Source of the DNA: a virus
IMG/VR virus record: IMGVR_UViG_3300048999_000166
Location: 58,430 to 122,429 of that record
Direction: 5' to 3' (one strand)
Length of the DNA stretch: 64,000 nucleotides
How positions within the stretch are numbered: the stretch's first letter is position 1; the number at the start of each line of letters is the position of its first letter. Shown here in pieces: positions 9,705-40,232 of this stretch. Position numbers and translations under genes: made by a program. Below the pieces are notes generated by a model. It saw nothing but the letters and a program-made list of their open reading frames with translations. It was not told where the DNA came from and did not search any database.

Positions 9705-9770
9705 GGTGAGTGTAATGAGTGTTTTGCTCGTTTCTACACTACACAACAAGAGCCCCGCGCGGTACATTCC
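9705..9770 (-). promoter_or_regulatory. ECF (SigR/SigH-type) promoter GGAAT-N18-GTT plus conserved leader motif
   Basis: GGAAT (9770-9766), 18 nt, GTT (9747-9745); leader CAAAACACTCATTACACTCACC (9726-9705). Confidence 0.55.
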
Positions 9771-9919
9771 CTCCATGGCAGAGATGCTGCGTGCCAGCCG
9801 CTACCAGGGCTGGAAGGCGTGTCCGTGTCGGTACTGCCGACGCGAACGCCCCGGCGGTGACGCACGCGCTCGCCGGGCCGCTCGCGCTCACGAGAACAGC
9901 GACTGGCGGCGTGAGGTCG

Positions 9920-13136: not shown

Positions 13137-13204
13137 GGTGAGTGTAATGAGTGTCTTGGTGGTTTGCATGCCTACAGTAGCACGAGGATGGGTAATTTAA
13201 TTCC
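13137..13204 (-). promoter_or_regulatory. Near-consensus ECF promoter GGAAT-N18-GCT plus leader motif upstream of GT2
   Basis: GGAAT 13204-13200; leader CAAGACACTCATTACACTCACC 13158-13137, 21/22 identical to that at 9726-9705. Confidence 0.5.
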
Positions 13205-13213
13205 CATCTGGTC

Positions 13214-14005
13214 CTACCGGCCTAGCAGTACTGCTCCAGCGAACTCCGGGGCGCGACCGCGATGCACGTTGGCGATCCGCACGAAGTTCTGCTCGTCGGT
13301 CATCAGCGCCAACATCTGCGCCAACGCGACGTCTTGATCAGGTAACCACTGCTCACTCATGCTGGGGTGGGCGCACAGCCTGCCCGCAGCCTCACCTCGT
13401 TCATCCAGGTACACCACGTTGCCGGCGTTACCGCGCTCGATGCGGTAGCGGTTGCCCTCCGACCCGGTGCACACGAAGTGACCTTCAGCTTCGTACTCCG
13501 CCCGCTGCTCGGGGGTCAAGAACTCCATCAAGGTGTTACGCGCTCGTGTCCGAGCGGCCTCCTGCGCGGCGATGCGCGCGGTGCGCTCCTCGTTCTGCCG
13601 CAGGATGCGCGCGGCGCGGGCCGCCTCTTCCTCGGGGGTGCGCACGCGAGGAGGGTCGTAGTAAGGGACCTGGAGCGGCGGGGGGTCGTAGAAGATGGTG
13701 TTATTGCCGGTGCCCATGGTCGTCCCCCAGGTGACGTTGGCGAGGTTGCCGAACGCGGTGGTCGCGGTGGTGATGGCGCCGGAGAACCCCTGCATCGCGG
13801 TGGCCAACGAGTAGGTCACCGTGGAACCGGCGTTCTGCCAGTCGGTCCACTCCACGCCTCCGGCGGTCAGTCGCCGTACGCCCCACGCCCGCTCGGCGAG
13901 CTGTTCGGTGCGCCGGGCGAGCCGCGGGCCAGGCTCGTCAGCAGGATGAAGCGGCGCCCGTACCAATGGGTACGAGCGCCGCTTCATCACCCTACGAGGG
14001 GGCAT
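13214..14005 (-). CDS. Uncharacterised conserved-Cys domain protein (paralog 1), partner of a GG-terminated protein
   Basis: C-terminal domain LTPEQR..GSEGNRYRI..GNV..GRLCAHP..LPDQD..LAQML.L.TDE..F..IAN, shared with three ORFs at 36845-39116. Confidence 0.8.
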   Translation of the reverse strand: MPPRRVMKRRSYPLVRAPLHPADEPGPRLARRTEQLAERAWGVRRLTAGGVEWTDWQNAGSTVTYSLATAMQGFSGAITTATTAFGNLANVTWGTTMGTGNNTIFYDPPPLQVPYYDPPRVRTPEEEAARAARILRQNEERTARIAAQEAARTRARNTLMEFLTPEQRAEYEAEGHFVCTGSEGNRYRIERGNAGNVVYLDERGEAAGRLCAHPSMSEQWLPDQDVALAQMLALMTDEQNFVRIANVHRGRAPEFAGAVLLGR

Positions 14006-14014
14006 CGTGAGTTC

Positions 14015-14233
14015 CTACCGGGCCCGACGTTCCTGGACCCACCGAACGACGTCGCGGGTGCAGTACCAGGCGAGGAATGCCACCCCTCCGAGGCACAGCA
14101 AGACCCCGATCAGGTGCACCAGCGGTGCCGCGATCAGCACGAGAAAGCCGAGAACGAGCGCACCTACGCCCATGAGGGTCGGGATGTCGAGCAGCTTGCG
14201 GGAGTAGGACTTCGAAGGCTGGGGCTCACTCAT
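14015..14233 (-). CDS. Small two-TM membrane protein
   Basis: 72 aa, hydrophobic, between the GG protein and paralog 1. Confidence 0.65.
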   Translation of the reverse strand: MSEPQPSKSYSRKLLDIPTLMGVGALVLGFLVLIAAPLVHLIGVLLCLGGVAFLAWYCTRDVVRWVQERRAR

Positions 14234-14236
14234 CTC

Positions 14237-14464
14237 TCAGCCACCCACAAGCTGCGGGCTCATCAGGATGCGCTCCGCGTCCGGGTCGAAGTTGCGCAGC
14301 AGCTCACCGCGTGAACCGTCCGTGCGCGTCTTGTAGGCCAGATAGCGCTTCGCCTTGTGCTCGTCGAAGTTCTTCCGGGCCAGCTCGACCTCGGTGGCGT
14401 TGTTCTTGTCCCACTCGATCCGGGTGTCCCCGGTGTTGTTCTGGATCAGCAGTGTGCTCGTCAC
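14237..14464 (-). CDS. Small ubiquitin-like (beta-grasp candidate) protein A ending in VGG
   Basis: 75 aa; GTGA-coupled to the phosphoesterase; ends PQLVGG-stop; paralog at 39150-39464. Confidence 0.7.
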   Translation of the reverse strand: MTSTLLIQNNTGDTRIEWDKNNATEVELARKNFDEHKAKRYLAYKTRTDGSRGELLRNFDPDAERILMSPQLVGG

Positions 14465-15723: not shown

Positions 15724-15802
15724 CTCCTTGGCTGGGGGCGTGAGTTGTGAGTATTGAGTGTCTTGCTGCAGTTCGCAACCATCATATCGGTCGTTACATT
15801 CC
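15724..15802 (-). promoter_or_regulatory. ECF promoter GGAAT-N18-GTT, leader motif and start-associated sequence
   Basis: GGAAT 15802-15798, GTT 15779-15777, CAAGACACTCAATACTCAC, then CACGCCCCCAGCCAAGGAG (identical at 30167-30149). Confidence 0.55.
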
Positions 15803-15827
15803 CATGCGGTCGGTAGGGTAGCGCGCC

Positions 15828-32427: not shown

Positions 32428-32639
32428 GGCTGGGTTCTCCTAGATGCTGAGCGTCATGTCGTAGAGGTCGAGGGTAGCGAGCGGAAGCTGGTAGGTCGGT
32501 GGAATTCCGAGCGGTGCGAGCGGAATCAAGATTCCCCGGTGGAGGGAGGATGCCGGCGCGTAGCTCGGGGGGCTCGCGTCCGCGCCGGCACCCAGTACGA
32601 GCACTCCCCCGATGAGTAGTGCTCGTACGACTTTGAGGG

Positions 32640-33872: not shown

Positions 33873-35357
33873 TCAGTTCCTCGCGGCGCTACGGCCGACT
33901 TCGAGCTGCGGGCGACGCAGCGTGAACGCCGGGTCACCGTCGTCGTCGAGCACTCGGAAGTCGTCGACCGTGTCGGTGATCGTGTCGCGCAGCACCCGAT
34001 CGAAGGTGGGCAGCGGCTCCGGGTCGGCGGCGTCCTTGTGGAGCTTGAGCTGGGCGTGCAGGCTCTTCGCCGCGTACACCAGGTCTTCGGTCTCCAGCCG
34101 GTAGCCCAGCTCCCCGCCGATCCGGTTGATGGCGAAGCTCCGTGCGCGGTCGGCGGTCGCCTTCACGAACGCCGGCAGGAACCTACCGGGCGCCTTCGGC
34201 TCGCACATCTGCTCGTGCACGGCGTCGAAGTCGATCTCACCCATCTTGTTGGGGTCGATCACCTTGCGCAGCAGCTCCTCGGTGGCCGGGGCATCGAGTT
34301 CCGCGATCTCGATGACGTAGTCCAACCGTCCCGGACGCAGCATGCCCGGCGGGATCCGCTGGATGAAGTTCGAGGAGAGCGCGACCATGATCTCGCCGCC
34401 ACCCTTGGCGGTGATGCCATCGAAGGCGTCCAGCATCTCGGAGATCTTGCGTGGGTTCGAGGAGCCGGACGTCTCAACGTCCACGTCCTCGATCCACACC
34501 ACGGCCGGAGCGTAGAGGCGCGCGGTCTGCAGCACGTCCTGCACGGAGTCGCGGCCTGGGCGAGCCATCACGAAGGTCCAGCCGTTGGCGACGGCTTCCT
34601 TGGCCAGCATCTGCCCGATGCTGGTCTTGCCGGTCCCGTAGGGGCCGTGGACCAGCACCGCCCGCTTCAGCGGGATCTTCTCCGCGCGGTAGGAGTGCGG
34701 GTAGCGCATCGCCGCGAACAGCGCGACGTCGAGCTGCGCCTTCACGTCCTGGGCGAAGACGATTTGGGACGGATCGAACGACTCCAACCCCTCGATGAAG
34801 TCGAGCCGGCTCGCGCCCGCGACAGCCTTGCCGCGGTAGATGGAGCCGTTCTTGAGCTGCTCGGAGACATCGGCGAAGAAGGCCTGGACCTCCTTCTCGT
34901 AGCGCTTCTTGGCCTCGACCTTGATGGCGAATACCTCACCCAGGTCACGGTCGTTGGTGCCGGTCAGGTAGACCTCGGCGTTGTCGAGCACCGGGATGCT
35001 CATCAACCCCCACGGGGCCTGCACGGTCTTACCGTTCGGTCCGATCGGGACTTCCAGCACCTGCGGAGGCTGCGGCCCGAACATGGTCATCATGTCCTTG
35101 CCCATGGTGATCCCGTAGCGGGACTTGAGCACCACGGCGGTGGCCACCGCTCCGTCGTAGCAGCGGTATTTGAAGATCTTGGTGAAGTTCGAGACGCGGG
35201 ACTCTTCCTCGCGCTTCGCCTCGAAAATCTTGATGGCCTTGGAGTAGGTCATCTCGCGGGGGAGCGTAAACAACTGCAGTTCGTCAGTGCGGAACTCGAT
35301 CTCATCACCAGTGATGATGTCGTCCTTGTCGATCGAGTCAGCGGCAATGCGGGCCAT
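33873..35357 (-). CDS. AAA+ ATPase (classical AAA clade, single ring, no protease domain)
   Basis: Walker A GPYGTGKT, Walker B WIEDVD, SRH RPGRLD; RBS AAAGGA. Confidence 0.93.
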   Translation of the reverse strand: MARIAADSIDKDDIITGDEIEFRTDELQLFTLPREMTYSKAIKIFEAKREEESRVSNFTKIFKYRCYDGAVATAVVLKSRYGITMGKDMMTMFGPQPPQVLEVPIGPNGKTVQAPWGLMSIPVLDNAEVYLTGTNDRDLGEVFAIKVEAKKRYEKEVQAFFADVSEQLKNGSIYRGKAVAGASRLDFIEGLESFDPSQIVFAQDVKAQLDVALFAAMRYPHSYRAEKIPLKRAVLVHGPYGTGKTSIGQMLAKEAVANGWTFVMARPGRDSVQDVLQTARLYAPAVVWIEDVDVETSGSSNPRKISEMLDAFDGITAKGGGEIMVALSSNFIQRIPPGMLRPGRLDYVIEIAELDAPATEELLRKVIDPNKMGEIDFDAVHEQMCEPKAPGRFLPAFVKATADRARSFAINRIGGELGYRLETEDLVYAAKSLHAQLKLHKDAADPEPLPTFDRVLRDTITDTVDDFRVLDDDGDPAFTLRRPQLEVGRSAARN

Positions 35358-35457
35358 GCGTCAATTCCTTTGATTGAGTGATGGGGGAAGCGCGGTAATG
35401 CAAGGCTCGGGGGACGCGCGGGCGGATGAATGATCCTTTTCGTTGGCTGGGGCTAGA

Positions 35458-35510
35458 GGCACGGAGCGGGAATAGTGGAACGTCCGATCCCCGTATTCCC
35501 ACTCCGTGCC
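35458..35510 (-). terminator. 17-bp hairpin downstream of the His-rich secreted protein
   Basis: GGCACGGAG-TGGGAATA...TATTCCCG-CTCCGTGCC. Confidence 0.5.
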
Positions 35511-35524
35511 CGAGGGAGGTTACC

Positions 35525-35872
35525 TCAGTGCTTGGTGTCCTTATGCACCGGCCCCTTGTGAATGGGGCCGTGGGACACCGGGTGGTGACGAATGGGGCCG
35601 TGGAAGATCGGGTGCCCCCGGTGGATAGGACGCGGGTGGAAGGCGGGCTTGCACACGAAGTGCCAGCGTCCGCCCCAGAAGCGCCAACAGCGATCGCCGC
35701 GATGGTCGCCACGGCGATCAGCAACGAACGCGACCGTGGTCACCGAGGTGGCCACCGGCGCGGACGTCGGGGTGGAGGCCTGCGCCACCGGAGCGGTGAG
35801 CACGGCGGCGAGCGCCATCGCGGACACCACACCGCCCAGCGCCAGGCCGCGAGACTTCAGATGAGAGAGCAC
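35525..35872 (-). CDS. Secreted protein with His/Pro-rich (HGPI-like) repeats
   Basis: RBS AAGGAG, signal peptide ending AQA, repeats HRGHPIFHGPIRHHPVSHGPIHKGPVHK. Confidence 0.65.
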   Translation of the reverse strand: MLSHLKSRGLALGGVVSAMALAAVLTAPVAQASTPTSAPVATSVTTVAFVADRRGDHRGDRCWRFWGGRWHFVCKPAFHPRPIHRGHPIFHGPIRHHPVSHGPIHKGPVHKDTKH

Positions 35873-35988
35873 TACGTTCTCCTTGCTGGATGTCGTGCTG
35901 AGTGAGTATTGCACGAGTTGGGGGAGTTTTGCCACCGGGGGGTCCGGGTGCCATCTACGTCGCTCAAGAGCGCCTCGGCGTTACCGGG

Positions 35989-36027
35989 ACTACTTCAAAC
36001 TGTCCAGACTGGGCAGCTTGAAGTAGT
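35989..36027. promoter_or_regulatory. 39-bp imperfect palindrome (operator/parS-like site), copy 1
   Basis: ACTACTTCAA-ACTGTCCAGACTGGGCAGC-TTGAAGTAGT; its reverse complement matches 54802-54840 at 34/39. Confidence 0.65.
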
Positions 36028-36042
36028 TCACACCGAGAGGCG

Positions 36043-36076
36043 CGGAATTTGGTGCAGGTACGCACCAAATTCCGCA
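36043..36076 (-). terminator. 14-bp hairpin after the STAS gene
   Basis: GCGGAATTTGGTGC/GCACCAAATTCCGC perfect stem. Confidence 0.6.
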
Positions 36077-36077
36077 C

Positions 36078-36455
36078 TCATCCAGCGTCGACACCGTGGT
36101 TCTCCCGTACCCGTTGGTAGATCTTGAACAGATCAGTGAGGGGCTGAGCGGTGATGTCGCCGGGCAGCGGCACCAGGGTGGACTCGGTGAGCAGCAGTCC
36201 CTCTCGGACACTCAACATCGAAGAGGCGTACGACAACAGCTCCGACAGTCCGGGGTCGAGATCGTAGGCGTCCACCAGATCGACCAGGAGATCGGTGATA
36301 CCTGAATCGAGCAGGGTCTCCACCTGGGAGCGCAACTGGTGCATGGAGTGAACGTCCAGTCGTCCGGAGACCTGAATATTCGCCCGTCTATCGTCGATAA
36401 ACACCGTTATAGCCGCCACGTCTTTCACTCTCCAATCGAGTAGGACGGCGGCCAC
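36078..36455 (-). CDS. STAS-domain (anti-anti-sigma-like) protein
   Basis: IQVSGRLD......LR..V..LL..G...LLVDL....D.D..G pattern; lower GC3. Confidence 0.7.
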   Translation of the reverse strand: MAAVLLDWRVKDVAAITVFIDDRRANIQVSGRLDVHSMHQLRSQVETLLDSGITDLLVDLVDAYDLDPGLSELLSYASSMLSVREGLLLTESTLVPLPGDITAQPLTDLFKIYQRVRENHGVDAG

Positions 36456-36515
36456 CGGTTGGCTCGCCGCCAGGGTCTAGGGCGGTTCGTCAAGGGTTCC
36501 CGGGATTTGCCCGGG

Positions 36516-36761
36516 TCAGGTCTCCGCGGTGTTGATCGGCGCCTCCCCACCGGATTGTTCCGGCGCTAGGTGCCGGATCCATAGCTCTACCGAGCAGGGA
36601 GAGGTCTTACCGCAGTCGCGGCATAGCCCATCCTTGGCGGCGCGATGCTGTTTTCGAGCCCGGGGTAAACATTCCGGGAACAACCGGAAAAAGTGCACGA
36701 TAAAATCCGGCACCCGCTCCGGGTGTGCTCGCTCCGGTTGTGTGTCCATCAGATCGGTCAC
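36516..36761 (-). CDS. Hypothetical protein with H..CxxC...PC motif
   Basis: 81 aa, lower GC. Confidence 0.45.
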   Translation of the reverse strand: MTDLMDTQPERAHPERVPDFIVHFFRLFPECLPRARKQHRAAKDGLCRDCGKTSPCSVELWIRHLAPEQSGGEAPINTAET

Positions 36762-36844: not shown

Positions 36845-37321
36845 CTACCGTCCGAGGATTCCTTCGCAGGCCTCTCGGAAGAACTGTCGGATATGCCAGA
36901 GCCAGCCAGCCTTGACGCACGGAGGCCAGTATCCCCCCATCTCCAGGTTGGCCTTGCGCACGAACGCCCGCTCGTCGGTGACCAGCGCCAGGAACTGCCC
37001 GAGCATCAGATCCTCATCGGGGATCGGGCGGCGAGCCCCGTTGGGCCACTGATCGGGCGCCGCGCAGAGCGACCCGCGAGTTCGTCCGGCGCTGTTGAGC
37101 CACGCGACGTTGAAGATGTGTCCTCGGGAGATCCGGTAACGAGTCCCCCGCGAGCCGGTCAGCTCGAAGTACCCGAGCCGCGCATAGTCCTCGCGCTGCG
37201 CGTCGTCGAGCATCCGCATCAGCAGGGCGAGCGCGTTGCCCTGCGGGGTGCCGGGGTAGGCGTGCATCCACCATCGGCGGTGTTCGTCGCGCACATACTC
37301 GTCGAGGGAGAAGCTCACCAC
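36845..37321 (-). CDS. Conserved-Cys domain protein (paralog 2, essentially domain only)
   Basis: GSRGTRYRI, NV.WL, GSLCAAP, IP.ED..LGQFL.L.TDE..F...AN. Confidence 0.8.
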   Translation of the reverse strand: MVSFSLDEYVRDEHRRWWMHAYPGTPQGNALALLMRMLDDAQREDYARLGYFELTGSRGTRYRISRGHIFNVAWLNSAGRTRGSLCAAPDQWPNGARRPIPDEDLMLGQFLALVTDERAFVRKANLEMGGYWPPCVKAGWLWHIRQFFREACEGILGR

Positions 37322-38217
37322 GGCCCCCCGATGCGGCCGATCCGGTTGAACTGGTAATACCGGCCACCGGGATACGGGATGCCCGCGTAGTTGTCAGGTC
37401 GGCGCACCATGGTCGCCACCAGCTCCTTGCACACCGCGCAGTCGCACGGGGCGACATCGGTCAGCCGCCCCTCCGCGGCCATGCGACGAGCGTAGGCGGC
37501 GTGCTTGGGGTGGTGCGTCGGGTAGTTGCCCGAGAACAGGTTCGCACTATCGAGGAAGGAGTCCTCGTCGGTGATCAGCTGCAGCATCTGCCCGAGGAAC
37601 TGGTCCTCCACCGGCAGGTAGCGCCCATCGGGGGTGTAGCCCTTCGGATAGGCGCAGTACCTGCCGGCATCGATGCGGGAGCTGCCGCCAAGAGCAACGG
37701 ACCTGCGCCAGAGGACGTTGCCGCTCGCGTTGCCGTCGGTCTTGATCCGGTAGAGCGTGCCCTTCGAGCCGACCACCTCGAAGTACTTCCAGTCCCGGTA
37801 GGTCTTGCGCTGGTCCTCGTTCAGGAAGCTCCTCAAGGTCTCCTGGGCCTTCGCCTGGGCGGCGGAGCTATCCTCCGTGATCCGCGCCCGCGCCTGCATA
37901 GGCGCACCACCGATACGGACATCGACCCAGCCGTTGTCCAGCCCGACGAGTCCAGCCCGCAGTCGATCTATCTCTCGGGTGAAGGCCTCCAGGGCATTGA
38001 CGGCCGGGTAGTTGTCGAACCGAATCTCGACGCGCGCTCCGTCGACGAGAGCGTGCTCGGCCGTGCCGGTCACCGTGTCGTTGTCGTTGAGCCGCAGCCC
38101 AAGCGCGACCAACCGGGTATCGCGCGCCCGCTTCCTGGCGGCGGTCTGGCGGGCTAGCTCCCGAGCACGTTCCCGATCTCGTTGCCGCTGCTGCCCCATC
38201 CCGAACATCGCGCTCAC
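37315..38217 (-). CDS. Conserved-Cys domain protein (paralog 3)
   Basis: GSKGTLYRI, GNV, GRYCAYP, LP.ED..LGQML.L.TDE..F...AN; GTGA-coupled to paralog 4. Confidence 0.8.
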   Translation of the reverse strand: MSAMFGMGQQRQRDRERARELARQTAARKRARDTRLVALGLRLNDNDTVTGTAEHALVDGARVEIRFDNYPAVNALEAFTREIDRLRAGLVGLDNGWVDVRIGGAPMQARARITEDSSAAQAKAQETLRSFLNEDQRKTYRDWKYFEVVGSKGTLYRIKTDGNASGNVLWRRSVALGGSSRIDAGRYCAYPKGYTPDGRYLPVEDQFLGQMLQLITDEDSFLDSANLFSGNYPTHHPKHAAYARRMAAEGRLTDVAPCDCAVCKELVATMVRRPDNYAGIPYPGGRYYQFNRIGRIGGPW

Positions 38218-39116
38218 CACCGTGCCGAGTACTTGCGCTTGTGCAGCGGGTGCACCTCGCCATCGAGGTGGTGTGCGATCCCCATCCAGCGCCCCTCGTC
38301 GGTCACGATCTCCAGCATCTGGGCGAGGATGTGATCGGCCAGCGGGAGGTTGCGTGCGGCGAGAGTGTTGTAGGTGTCGGAGTGCGCGCAGAGCTGTCCG
38401 CGCTTCTTGTCGTCCTTGTCCAGCCACCACACGTTGCCCGAGGGGGAGCCGTAGGTCTTCGCGCCGAACACCCGGAAGCGGGTACCCAGCGAGCCGGTGA
38501 TCACGAACCAGTCGTTGACGTCCAGCGAGGTGCGCTGCTCCTCGGTCAGGTAGCGGCGCAGCGTCGCCCAGGCGGTCTTGTCGGCCTTCGTGACCGCCTC
38601 TCGGCGCTCGCGCTGGTGGTGTTCGCGCAGTGCATCCTCGCGGTCGCGCTCGGCCTTCCAGGCGTTGAAGCGACGGGTAGCCCAGCCGCGCTGGGCGGGC
38701 GTCGCGGACGGGCGGGGGAGGCTGATCTTGACCATCGTGTAGCTCTGGCGGTCGTAGCGGTCGACGTCATCACCGCGGGAGACGCCGTGCTCGACGGAGT
38801 CGACGTCGCCGCGGATCGCGGCGCGCAGGTCGTCCGCGGTGATGATGTAGCCGGGGGCGGCGGTGGAGAACCGGAAGCAGAAACGGCGTACTTCTTGGCC
38901 GTCCTCCTCCGCGAACAGCAGATCCCCGATCGGGTTCATGTACGCGGAACGGATGTCGGGCGAGCAGAGCACGAACTTCAGGTCTTCCCGAATGGTCATG
39001 CGGCCGATGACCGCTTCGGGGTCGTAGGCCAAGGGTGGGTGGGGAGCGGCCGACGGGCCCGTGGCATCCACGGGCCCGTCGGTTCCGTCCGCTCCCCCCG
39101 AAGGAGGTTCGGTCAT
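38214..39116 (-). CDS. Conserved-Cys domain protein (paralog 4)
   Basis: GSLGTRFRV, GNVWWL, GQLCAHS, LP.AD..LAQML...TDE. Confidence 0.8.
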   Translation of the reverse strand: MTEPPSGGADGTDGPVDATGPSAAPHPPLAYDPEAVIGRMTIREDLKFVLCSPDIRSAYMNPIGDLLFAEEDGQEVRRFCFRFSTAAPGYIITADDLRAAIRGDVDSVEHGVSRGDDVDRYDRQSYTMVKISLPRPSATPAQRGWATRRFNAWKAERDREDALREHHQRERREAVTKADKTAWATLRRYLTEEQRTSLDVNDWFVITGSLGTRFRVFGAKTYGSPSGNVWWLDKDDKKRGQLCAHSDTYNTLAARNLPLADHILAQMLEIVTDEGRWMGIAHHLDGEVHPLHKRKYSARW

Positions 39117-39149
39117 CGTGCTACTCTCTGTTGTTAGGTAAGGCTACGC

Positions 39150-39464
39150 TCAGCCGCCCACGGTCTGGGGGACCATGATGACGGCCGCGGCGGTGCTCGC
39201 CTCATCCCAGCTGCGGGTGATGACCGCGTCGTTACCGGTGTCGGTCTCGCTCGCGGTCATGTGGGCCCGGTAGCCCAGCGCCAGCATCTCCTTGAACTTC
39301 GCCTCGGCCAGCGCGAGGTCGTGAGCGACCACCGCGTCGGCGACGCGACCGGCGTCGGAGCGCCCGTCGGCGAACGCCTCGTCCACCGCGGCGATCAGCT
39401 CGGGGCTGGCCTCCCAGGTGAGAGTGGTGTCTCCGGTCGAGTCCAGCACGTGCAGAGTTGCCAT
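39150..39464 (-). CDS. Small ubiquitin-like (beta-grasp candidate) protein B ending in VGG
   Basis: RBS AGGAG; TLHVLDSTGDTTLTW...A...F..M...GY.A...VIMVPQTVGG-stop; paralog of 14237-14464 with an insertion. Confidence 0.7.
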   Translation of the reverse strand: MATLHVLDSTGDTTLTWEASPELIAAVDEAFADGRSDAGRVADAVVAHDLALAEAKFKEMLALGYRAHMTASETDTGNDAVITRSWDEASTAAAVIMVPQTVGG

Positions 39465-39538
39465 GGTCAGTCTTCTCCTGTGATTGGGTTTACGGGGAAG
39501 CCACCGCGCTGGGTCGCACGGCGCGATTAGTTACTCGA

Positions 39539-39679
39539 CTTTGAGCAACTAGGAAGGGACCGAGGTCGAGGGAGTCAGCCTCTCGCCTCCGCACGGACGG
39601 TTGACAACGTCGCCCGCGTTAAATCCGGTAGACCGCGCGCCTATTGCCGCGCCTCGGCCCACTTCCTAGTTGCTCAAAG
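39539..39679 (-). ncRNA. 141-nt element bounded by an 18-bp perfect inverted repeat (candidate ncRNA/leader)
   Basis: CTTTGAGCAACTAGGAAG (39539-39556) / CTTCCTAGTTGCTCAAAG (39662-39679), extendable by about 9 bp with a G.U on the minus strand. Confidence 0.5.
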
Positions 39680-39833
39680 GACAGCGTTAATTCCAGCGGA
39701 TAAGGGAGGGCCAGAGGCGGAATCAACACACGTCGACAAAGCGCACATGGCCCTGCCCGGTGGTTGGCGCTCTGGCCCTCCCGTATCCGCTGGACAAAAC
39801 ACTCAGGGGCTGATGATGCTAGCGCGAGAATCG

Positions 39834-40232
39834 CTAACTAGCGGAGTGCAATTGGGTGACATTGTCGTCCGCCGCGGACGCGCGCACCCGACCCTCGGTC
39901 AGCGCCTTCTCGAAGTCCTCGTTGTACGCGCCGGCCGCGAAGTCCGCCTGGACGAGTCCGCTGCGCGGCACCAGATAGCCGGGCTCGTAGTGGCGGCGGC
40001 GCCCGTAGTCGAGCCGGTGACCGCTGTTGTCGATCAGGAAGGAGCGGGTGGCCGCGCAGCGCGGGCAGACCTCGGTACGCTCCCGCACCCCGGCGGAGAC
40101 GATCGTGTAGATCGCTCGCGGTGACCAGGAGTGGCGGTTCGTGCGACAGTCCCGGAAGGGCTTCGGGTACATGCCGAGGATCTCGCCCTGCGATTTACCT
40201 CGGTAACTAAGCCTGCGGTTACGTACTGCCAT
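39834..40232 (-). CDS. Conserved actinophage hypothetical protein
   Basis: CR...H.W, C.RC...R, Y..GY pattern; CCCAGCC-ATG start. Confidence 0.7.
   Translation of the reverse strand: MAVRNRRLSYRGKSQGEILGMYPKPFRDCRTNRHSWSPRAIYTIVSAGVRERTEVCPRCAATRSFLIDNSGHRLDYGRRRHYEPGYLVPRSGLVQADFAAGAYNEDFEKALTEGRVRASAADDNVTQLHSAS

Follow-up and report, generated by a model that had tools for sequence, protein, structure and literature searches.

To our knowledge, the bacterial ubiquitin-like protein (Ubl) conjugation systems characterised to date are host defences, and each has its own activating enzyme (E1). Among the closest of these, the conjugating enzyme (E2) of the Bil system lacks a ligase (E3) and has been proposed to choose its targets itself (PMC10557695; bioRxiv 10.1101/2023.09.04.556158; PDB 8tyx/8tyz). 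BubB of the Bub system uses a catalytic serine followed by an invariant histidine at position +2 (S333-x-H335) and is built without the C-terminal UBC helices (PMC11601596). The thiocarboxylate of Urm1 conjugates without any E2 or E3, via a target cysteine under oxidative stress (PMC9574740). Here we describe a phage-borne gene set, locus B, located in a 64,000-nucleotide stretch of DNA (the window) that spans bases 58430-122429 of the 122,429 bp IMG/VR virus record IMGVR_UViG_3300048999_000166. Locus B consists of a gene for a small protein ending in Gly-Gly (GG_B) and three overlapping genes for proteins with a common cysteine-containing domain (Cys1, Cys2 and Cys3); the same window contains a second pair, locus A (GG_A and Cys_A). 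Locus B is best read as a lineage-specific expansion of a widespread, conserved and undescribed two-gene module.

The source is an uncultured phage from soil, with a GC content of ~65% and a genome that has direct terminal repeats and is rated complete. Because close relatives of loci A and B are both found on the contig set of a Mycobacterium sp. metagenome-assembled genome (MAG), the host of the phage is likely an actinobacterium, possibly Mycobacterium.

Results

Locus B encodes one GG protein and three coupled Cys-domain paralogs

A first-pass annotation, made by a model from the sequence alone, had described GG_B as a repeat of the locus A pattern with an insertion, followed by three overlapping open reading frames (ORFs) that share a domain behind unrelated N-termini, one of them almost absent. 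Each element of this layout was recovered on the minus strand (Table 1). The four locus B frames have a GC content at third codon positions (GC3) of 0.84-0.91, and the long ORFs that mirror them on the plus strand have values of 0.64-0.66. A spacer of 33 nt separates GG_B from Cys1, while the GTG starts of Cys2 and Cys3 are overlapped by the preceding TGA stop by 4 or 7 nt. The sequence GTGGTGAGC is common to both the Cys1/Cys2 and the Cys2/Cys3 junctions; such identical junctions would be expected after tandem duplication, and they permit translational coupling.

Cys1, Cys2, Cys3 and Cys_A match one another in tblastn searches (E 1e-12 to 4e-22) over a shared domain of ~110 amino acids (aa), and exactly four copies of this domain are present in the entire 122-kb phage. 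The alignment of the four domains contains the motifs L..xQR, GSxGTxYRI, NV, GxLCA, P..D..L(A/G)Q.L...TDE and A, in agreement with those quoted in the first-pass annotation. By contrast with the domain, the arms of Cys1, Cys2 and Cys_A (134 aa in the last) have no mutual BLAST similarity, and Cys3 has just 26 residues ahead of its domain. The Cys1 arm type was found again in six other family representatives, and the Cys2 arm had no relatives. Cys2 also has a C-terminal tail of ~60 aa (window 37315-37500) with a short CDCxxC motif that is kept in the ortholog from the Mycobacterium MAG and might serve in metal binding or redox reactions.

A hidden Markov model (HMM) of the GG family, built from other members, gives GG_B a score of 40.7 bits. 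An insert at residues ~31-47 of GG_B stays unaligned and divides this match in two, and MAFFT places a 25-column insertion in the alignment. From these alignments GG_B is assigned to the predicted beta-grasp, GG-terminated family as a divergent, insertion-bearing member.

The GG/Cys-domain pair occurs across phages, plasmids and chromosomes

With a GG protein as the query, a Cys-domain gene was found immediately downstream and on the same strand in 19/19 viral loci. With the Cys domain as the query, a GG gene lay immediately upstream in 11/11 viral loci, 6 of which are new records. The 19 viral loci have no conserved third gene. Two Bradyrhizobium plasmids also carry the pair, with a GG protein of 73 aa that ends RLVGG. 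Among 401 sampled Actinomycetota genomes, 25 carry the Cys domain, and the 27 actinobacterial loci comprise 17 with an upstream match to the GG-family HMM, 8 with a divergent GG ORF and 2 with neither, both of them weak, partial Cys-domain matches. The tally of 25/27 includes a locus from an unpublished genome (L050, genome G083); it becomes 24/26 without this locus and the conclusions are unaffected. The pairing of the two genes is near-obligate across phages, plasmids and chromosomes, and the GG-terminated upstream neighbour on which the first-pass reading hinged is almost always present.

The divergent actinobacterial group is a syntenic chromosomal pair with the gene order rnhB, Mg-chelatase-like, dprA, thiD, GG, Cys, ilvD (L069-L075, e.g. 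L073:6368-8336). It belongs to the Solirubrobacteraceae, where it is very common, and thousands of near-identical proteins are found in soil metagenomes. Because of this chromosomal version, the module is shown not to be purely a phage weapon. The GG proteins of this subgroup end in GG, or sometimes in GGR or in GG plus a 10-aa extension, and by analogy these extended termini resemble Ubl precursors that need trimming.

Several loci depart from the simple pair. In locus A a predicted membrane protein is encoded between the GG and Cys-domain genes, and a small ORF occupies the same place in five other phage loci (L016-L019, L021), without similarity to the one in locus A. The 197 kb genome of the uncultured Virus Rctr197k (KX853510.1; L087, 2309-6971) encodes a GG-family protein that ends STIPG, with a single Gly, followed by two Cys-domain proteins, the second ~1.2 kb further on; this locus lies beside an annotated CRISPR array and a transposase. 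Extra copies are now and then present in other phages, with two tandem Cys-domain ORFs at L038:3845-5714, a weak second GG-like ORF at L022:7285-7695 and a weak second Cys-domain ORF at L013:9177-9989.

The six window proteins (two GG and four Cys-domain proteins) had no meaningful match in Pfam, PHROGs, NCBIfam or PADLOC, and none in Pfam at E ≤ 1, and Pfam searches with 47 family members gave scattered chance matches only. PDB-sequence profile searches returned no match. In the ESM Atlas, Cys3 retrieved only unnamed 'hypothetical protein' clusters and the Cys1 arm retrieved none. Megablast and tblastn searches of GenBank phages found no relative of locus B, of Cys3 or of the plasmid Cys protein, and a GG relative in two uncultured phage records only; a related-locus search with GG_A as the sole query also returned none. 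We found no description of a GG/Cys-domain pair in the literature.

Locus B is a rare expansion with a near-frozen GG protein

There are 25 other phage records that contain the pair. Because 24 of these hold one Cys-domain gene and the remaining one holds two in tandem, and because Virus Rctr197k holds two, three coupled paralogs together with a second complete pair are a rare expansion.

The closest counterpart of locus B is on contig L026 of the Mycobacterium MAG, which carries a GG gene and three paralogs with 83% nucleotide identity to locus B; a relative of locus A is held by L027 of the same MAG. GG_B and its L026 ortholog are 98% identical in amino acid sequence, with a ratio of nonsynonymous to synonymous substitution rates (dN/dS) of 0.046. 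The corresponding identities are 82% for Cys1, 56% for Cys2 and 76% for Cys3, and the dN/dS values, which come from this single genome pair, are 0.34, 0.50 and 0.32, respectively. All four locus B genes are under purifying selection, and the GG protein is near-frozen while its partners change quickly. The earlier proposal of diversification under host pressure agrees with the fast paralogs beside a near-frozen GG_B, but the dN/dS values lie below 1 and derive from one genome pair.

In a tree of the domain, each window paralog groups with its MAG ortholog (support 99-100). The four paralogs fall into one weakly supported group together with four other phage sequences, and the three locus B paralogs sit on long branches. 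The tree fits, and does not prove, old duplications that were followed by rapid divergence.

The Cys domain has one invariant cysteine and a predicted E2-like fold

An exhaustive profile search, with clusters defined at 50% identity, found 6738 clusters of the Cys-domain family at E ≤ 1e-3 and 2968 at E ≤ 1e-10. Spread over soil phages, plasmids and Solirubrobacteraceae chromosomes, the family is a sizeable unannotated block of protein space for which there is no Pfam, NCBIfam, PHROG or PADLOC model. Conservation was taken from 153 members and is given in Cys3 numbering. A single Cys is invariant (153/153), and the Asn, Asp and Gln residues that had been singled out alongside it are conserved as well: Asn71 in 99%, Asp104 in 99% and Gln109 in 100% of members, with Pro101 and Gly59 likewise at 99-100%. 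The residue at Cys+2 is His in 89% of the family, Tyr in Cys2 and Ala in Cys3. No second Cys or His is invariant in the 153 members, an observation that speaks against both a metal site and a Cys-His peptidase.

The domain lies near the C-terminus, followed by a median of 8 aa and preceded by an arm with a median of 95 aa (range 0-401), and 134 N-terminal arms fall into 108 BLAST clusters. These figures support the view that the Cys domain is the constant, C-terminal part of proteins whose arms are hypervariable. This part of the first-pass proposal was retained; its comparison of the proteins to E3 ligases was not, as the fold evidence points to an E2-like (UBC/RWD) domain and an E2 with a built-in substrate arm fits better.

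The model of Cys3 (predicted local distance difference test, pLDDT, 87) has two helices followed by a sheet of four strands and, past a loop of 15 residues, a long helix. The invariant Cys ends strand 4, 16 residues before the long helix. Foldseek searches of the PDB with this model gave no significant match. In a comparison with 48,161 PDB representatives, each of the 12 best matches, and 29 of the best 50, belongs to the UBC/RWD/UEV superfold, with a Z that was never >4.5; the top matches include RWD, Ubc9, FANCL-URD, E2S, UEV, BubB, CdnG-E2 and Cap2. The model thus suggests a resemblance to E2/RWD proteins at the level of the fold, which is not proof of homology. A papain-like or deubiquitinase-like cysteine peptidase was considered and rejected, as the family has no invariant His and as the fold and the position of the Cys at a strand end do not suit such an enzyme. 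A zinc or other metal site was rejected as well, the Cys being the sole invariant one; the concern that it might be a metal ligand is therefore answered for the whole family.

The GG proteins form a GG-terminated family with a predicted beta-grasp fold

Relatives of GG_A are 74-99 aa long; a TGDT..W hairpin is invariant among them, and their C-terminus is (Q/P/R)x(V/A/Q)GG throughout. The GG is C-terminal in 23/23 aligned family members, and the stop codon directly follows GG in 41 of the 44 distinct GG-family ORFs from all fetched loci. The other 3 end in SG or PG, or in GG with a short extension (1-10 residues).

The GG_A model (pLDDT 86.5) has the order beta-beta-alpha-beta-beta-beta. Its best structural matches are Ubls (BilA 8tyx, SUMO, ISG15, BubA, TtuB, MoaD) and other beta-grasp proteins, which agrees with the earlier assignment of the GG protein to a beta-grasp, GG-terminated family. 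In Foldseek searches of the PDB, BilA, the Bil Ubl, ranked best, but no match was significant. The GG proteins have no Pfam match to ThiS or MoaD, and their encoded partner is the Cys domain. Two other identities were rejected. Pup-like tags end in GGQ or GGE and are disordered, and sortase-type transpeptidation does not suit the phage GG proteins, which have a free terminus and no peptide bond to exchange.

The phage encodes no E1

Neither ThiF-family nor Prok-JAB domains were matched anywhere in the complete phage. A ThiF gene is present in only one of the 11 near-complete phages that carry the pair, at a distance of 31 kb. In controls, the ThiF search matched in 14/14 genomes and was above the curated cut-off in 11. 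The scanned neighbours of the pair contain no peptidase domain. ThiF-type enzymes are near-universal in cells. Because the phage encodes no E1, either the host must supply the activation or an as yet unrecognised chemistry must do so.

A structured leader and neighbouring features

The untranslated leader upstream of GG_B is 93.5% identical to that of L026, compared with 83% for the entire locus, so that this non-coding stretch is better conserved than the paralog genes downstream. Neither locus B nor the leader has a match in Rfam. The leader is probably regulatory.

Downstream of locus B, in the same leftward unit, lie four ORFs (33873-36761, minus strand), which include a classic AAA ATPase that is not kept beside the GG/Cys pair in other phages. 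The window also contains four copies of the motif GGGAAT-N17-19-GYT, compared with 1.4 expected, and 2 of 100 shuffles reach four. One copy is upstream of the locus A unit and one is just after Cys_A; none is upstream of locus B.

Table 1 Positions of locus B, locus A and neighbouring features in the window. MFE, minimum free energy.
Feature	Position	Strand	Description
Leader upstream of GG_B	39465-39835	(-)	371 nt untranslated; two very long hairpins; MFE -188 kcal/mol, z -9.4
GG_B	39150-39464	(-)	104 aa; ends PQTVGG-stop; ~25-aa insertion after first hairpin; GC3 0.91
Cys1	38214-39116	(-)	300 aa; 162-aa N-terminal arm; domain ~163-298; Cys243 codon 38388-38390, motif QLCAHS
Cys2	37315-38217	(-)	300 aa; ~110-aa basic/helical arm; domain ~115-241; Cys188 codon 37654-37656, motif RYCAYP
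Cys3	36845-37321	(-)	158 aa; domain and C-terminal helix; Cys86 codon 37064-37066, motif SLCAAP
81-aa ORF	within 33873-36761	(-)	downstream of locus B
Weak STAS-like protein	36078-36455	(-)	downstream of locus B
His-rich secreted-looking protein	35525-35935	(-)	downstream of locus B
AAA ATPase	33873-35357	(-)	494 aa; PF00004; downstream of locus B
GG_A (locus A)	14237-14464	(-)	75 aa; canonical GG-family member; ends QLVGG-stop
Predicted membrane protein (locus A)	14015-14233	(-)	72 aa; between GG_A and Cys_A
Cys_A (locus A, fourth paralog)	13214-14005	(-)	263 aa; Cys211 codon 13373-13375, motif RLCAHP
GGGAAT-N17-19-GYT	9745-9771, 13179-13205, 15777-15803, 32510-32536	(-)	

Discussion

The pairing, the conserved termini and the modelled folds lead us to a reading to which we give an even chance, namely that the Cys proteins are E2-like conjugating enzymes with built-in targeting arms that are charged through a host E1. 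The GG protein would be a small beta-grasp Ubl tag that reacts through its free C-terminal Gly-Gly. Adenylation of this tail would fall to an E1-like host enzyme of the ThiF/MoeB/MoeZ type, and we infer that the activated GG protein would then pass to the Cys protein as a thioester. Each Cys protein would contain a minimal, non-canonical E2-like domain of the UBC/RWD superfold, in which the single invariant Cys, at the end of strand 4 and before the long crossover helix, accepts the tag, with the near-invariant Asn, Asp and Gln and the usual Cys+2 His as putative aids to catalysis. Through their unrelated N-terminal arms the paralogs would pick different targets for conjugation during infection, such that each paralog is an E2 acting as its own E3, as has been proposed for the Bil E2s.

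Several points weigh against this reading. The HPN motif is absent from the Cys domain, which has instead a near-invariant Asn (GNV) 15-21 residues before the Cys and C-A-H-P after it, and, of the three locus B paralogs, Cys2 and Cys3 lack the Cys+2 His. Neither sequence nor profile comparison connects the domain to any E2 family: UQ_con and Prok-E2 were matched neither in Pfam at E ≤ 1 nor in the PDB profile searches, and an hhalign comparison with one Prok-E2_B sequence gave a probability of 0.7%; the only local alignment in that non-significant comparison paired two G-x-(I/L)-C-A motifs. The beta-grasp model is of GG_A, and GG_B is assigned this fold through family membership. The syntenic copy that Solirubrobacteraceae chromosomes carry between thiD and ilvD suggests that some family members serve a housekeeping or sulfur-related function. 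Finally, every characterised bacterial Ubl system that we know of (type II CBASS, the cyclic oligonucleotide-based antiphage signalling system, as well as Bil and Bub) encodes its own E1, and an E2 that uses a foreign E1 would be unprecedented among them.

We regard a sulfur-carrier or Urm1-like alternative as unlikely. Here a host E1/rhodanese enzyme would make a thiocarboxylate on the GG tail, and the partner Cys would be a persulfide acceptor or a redox-sensitive attachment site without E2-type catalysis. Sulfur carriage is the typical role of beta-grasp proteins that end in GG and have no E2 dedicated to them, the structural matches include TtuB and MoaD, and the chromosomal version directly follows thiD. 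The unit to which locus A belongs has a GGGAAT-N18-GYT motif upstream, and Urm1 provides a precedent for conjugation free of E2 and E3 (PMC9574740). However, only in one lineage is the pair next to thiD, an arrangement that may be no more than inherited, and no ThiS or MoaD Pfam match and no ThiG, MoaE or CysM-like partner accompanies the pair. The partner's fold matches E2/RWD proteins rather than rhodanese or known sulfurtransferases, and hypervariable arms with three tandem paralogs are hard to fit to a metabolic sulfur relay. The Cys domain could also be a UEV/RWD-like binder of the beta-grasp protein that carries out no transfer chemistry, the two forming, for instance, a heterodimer with a regulatory or scaffolding role. 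RWD and UEV domains without catalytic activity are numerous among the top structural matches, the module has no E1, HPN motif or deconjugating enzyme, and tight pairing requires only that two proteins work jointly. Such a non-covalent pair nonetheless seems distinctly unlikely to us, given a Cys that is invariant in 153/153 members together with near-invariant Asn, Asp and Gln, as is typical of a catalytic centre, and a strict GG terminus whose occasional Ubl-precursor-like extensions point to C-terminal chemistry.

The phage context raises the idea of a counter-defence decoy, in which the phage GG and E2-like proteins imitate the components of host Bil, type II CBASS or Bub-like immunity and block it, for instance by sequestering the host E1 or by ending in dead-end adducts, and tag no targets of their own. 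In favour of a decoy, phages and plasmids carry the pair among accessory genes and with no E1 supplied, the Bil Ubl is the best Foldseek match of the GG protein, and fast paralogs sit beside a frozen GG protein. We nevertheless consider a decoy very improbable: the same pair is syntenic and chromosomal in the Solirubrobacteraceae, variable arms would be unnecessary, and Prok-E2_B occurs in 1/401 sampled Actinomycetota genomes, which, if representative of E2-bearing systems, would make the targets rare in the likely host phylum. The chromosomal synteny, core-like in that one bacterial family, is likewise at odds with a toxin-antitoxin-like or addiction module in which the small upstream protein would neutralise the downstream proteins. 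The gene layout recalls such modules, with a small upstream and a larger downstream gene that are overlapping or coupled, and so does the distribution on phages, plasmids and chromosomes, sometimes in several copies. But one small protein for three downstream proteins would be atypical, the strict GG terminus would be left unexplained, and no toxin-antitoxin signature was found in Pfam, PADLOC or NCBIfam, so that we give this explanation hardly any credence.

Beyond the E2-like reading of the Cys proteins lies a wider proposal that we put forward as tentative and rather doubtful. The tag and an E2-like carrier with its own arm may represent an unrecognised class of Ubl module, which would use a host MoeZ/ThiF-type sulfur-carrier E1, or Urm1-like thiocarboxylate chemistry at the invariant Cys; phages would tag different host proteins via interchangeable arms, and locus B would be a three-specificity cassette. 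Should the module be the tagging system that it resembles, bacterial viruses would own such a system, an E2-type enzyme would work with a borrowed E1 or with none, and there would be a natural one-tag system with swappable targeting arms. With one tag and three partners, locus B is a compact system for asking whether the arms set specificity.

We place the module within the theme of Ubl conjugation but in no named family, because it has no E1, no peptidase, no sequence similarity to a known system and no HPN motif. With Urm1/Uba4, the archaeal SAMPs/UbaA and Thermus TtuB/TtuC it appears to share a stripped-down design, with a GG-terminated beta-grasp protein and fewer enzymes than the full E1-E2-E3 series. 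In those systems a generalist ThiF-type E1 serves several carriers. However, they are E1-only and have no E2, whereas the phage module is E2-like-only and has no E1, and its GG proteins have no Pfam match to ThiS, MoaD or Urm1. The eukaryotic E2/E3 hybrids UBE2O and BIRC6 combine an E2 domain with substrate-binding regions, a likeness of architecture only; they are giant proteins with a canonical UBC domain, an HPN motif and a dedicated E1.

Among bacterial defence systems, Cap2 and CdnG-E2 of type II CBASS (PDB 7to3, 8hsb; PMC10097602) have a non-canonical E2 fold with a catalytic Cys, as we propose for the Cys proteins, but their E2 is joined to an E1, by fusion or by linkage, and acts on a CD-NTase, which it conjugates through the C-terminus, and not on a free Ubl. 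The Bub system (6E/DUF6527, PDB 9eav) has a minimal E2 fold without the C-terminal UBC helices and a conserved Asp, its S-x-H in BubB parallels the C-x-H found in 89% of the Cys-domain family, in which the shortness of the tail after the domain parallels the missing helices, and both BubA and BubB are among our structural matches. It differs in forming Ser/Tyr oxyesters and in having its own E1-peptidase fusion and a serine protease, whereas the Cys-domain family has an invariant Cys and neither E1 nor peptidase. Bil resembles the module, as we read it, in its small beta-grasp Ubl, whose C-terminal Gly is reactive, in an E2-fold partner that bears a catalytic Cys and in having no E3. Bil is a host defence and always has an E1 (BilD) and a JAB peptidase (BilC), for which the phage-borne module has neither gene; there is no sequence similarity between the two, and the E2-like domain of the module is distinguished by its long variable arms and its tandem paralogs.

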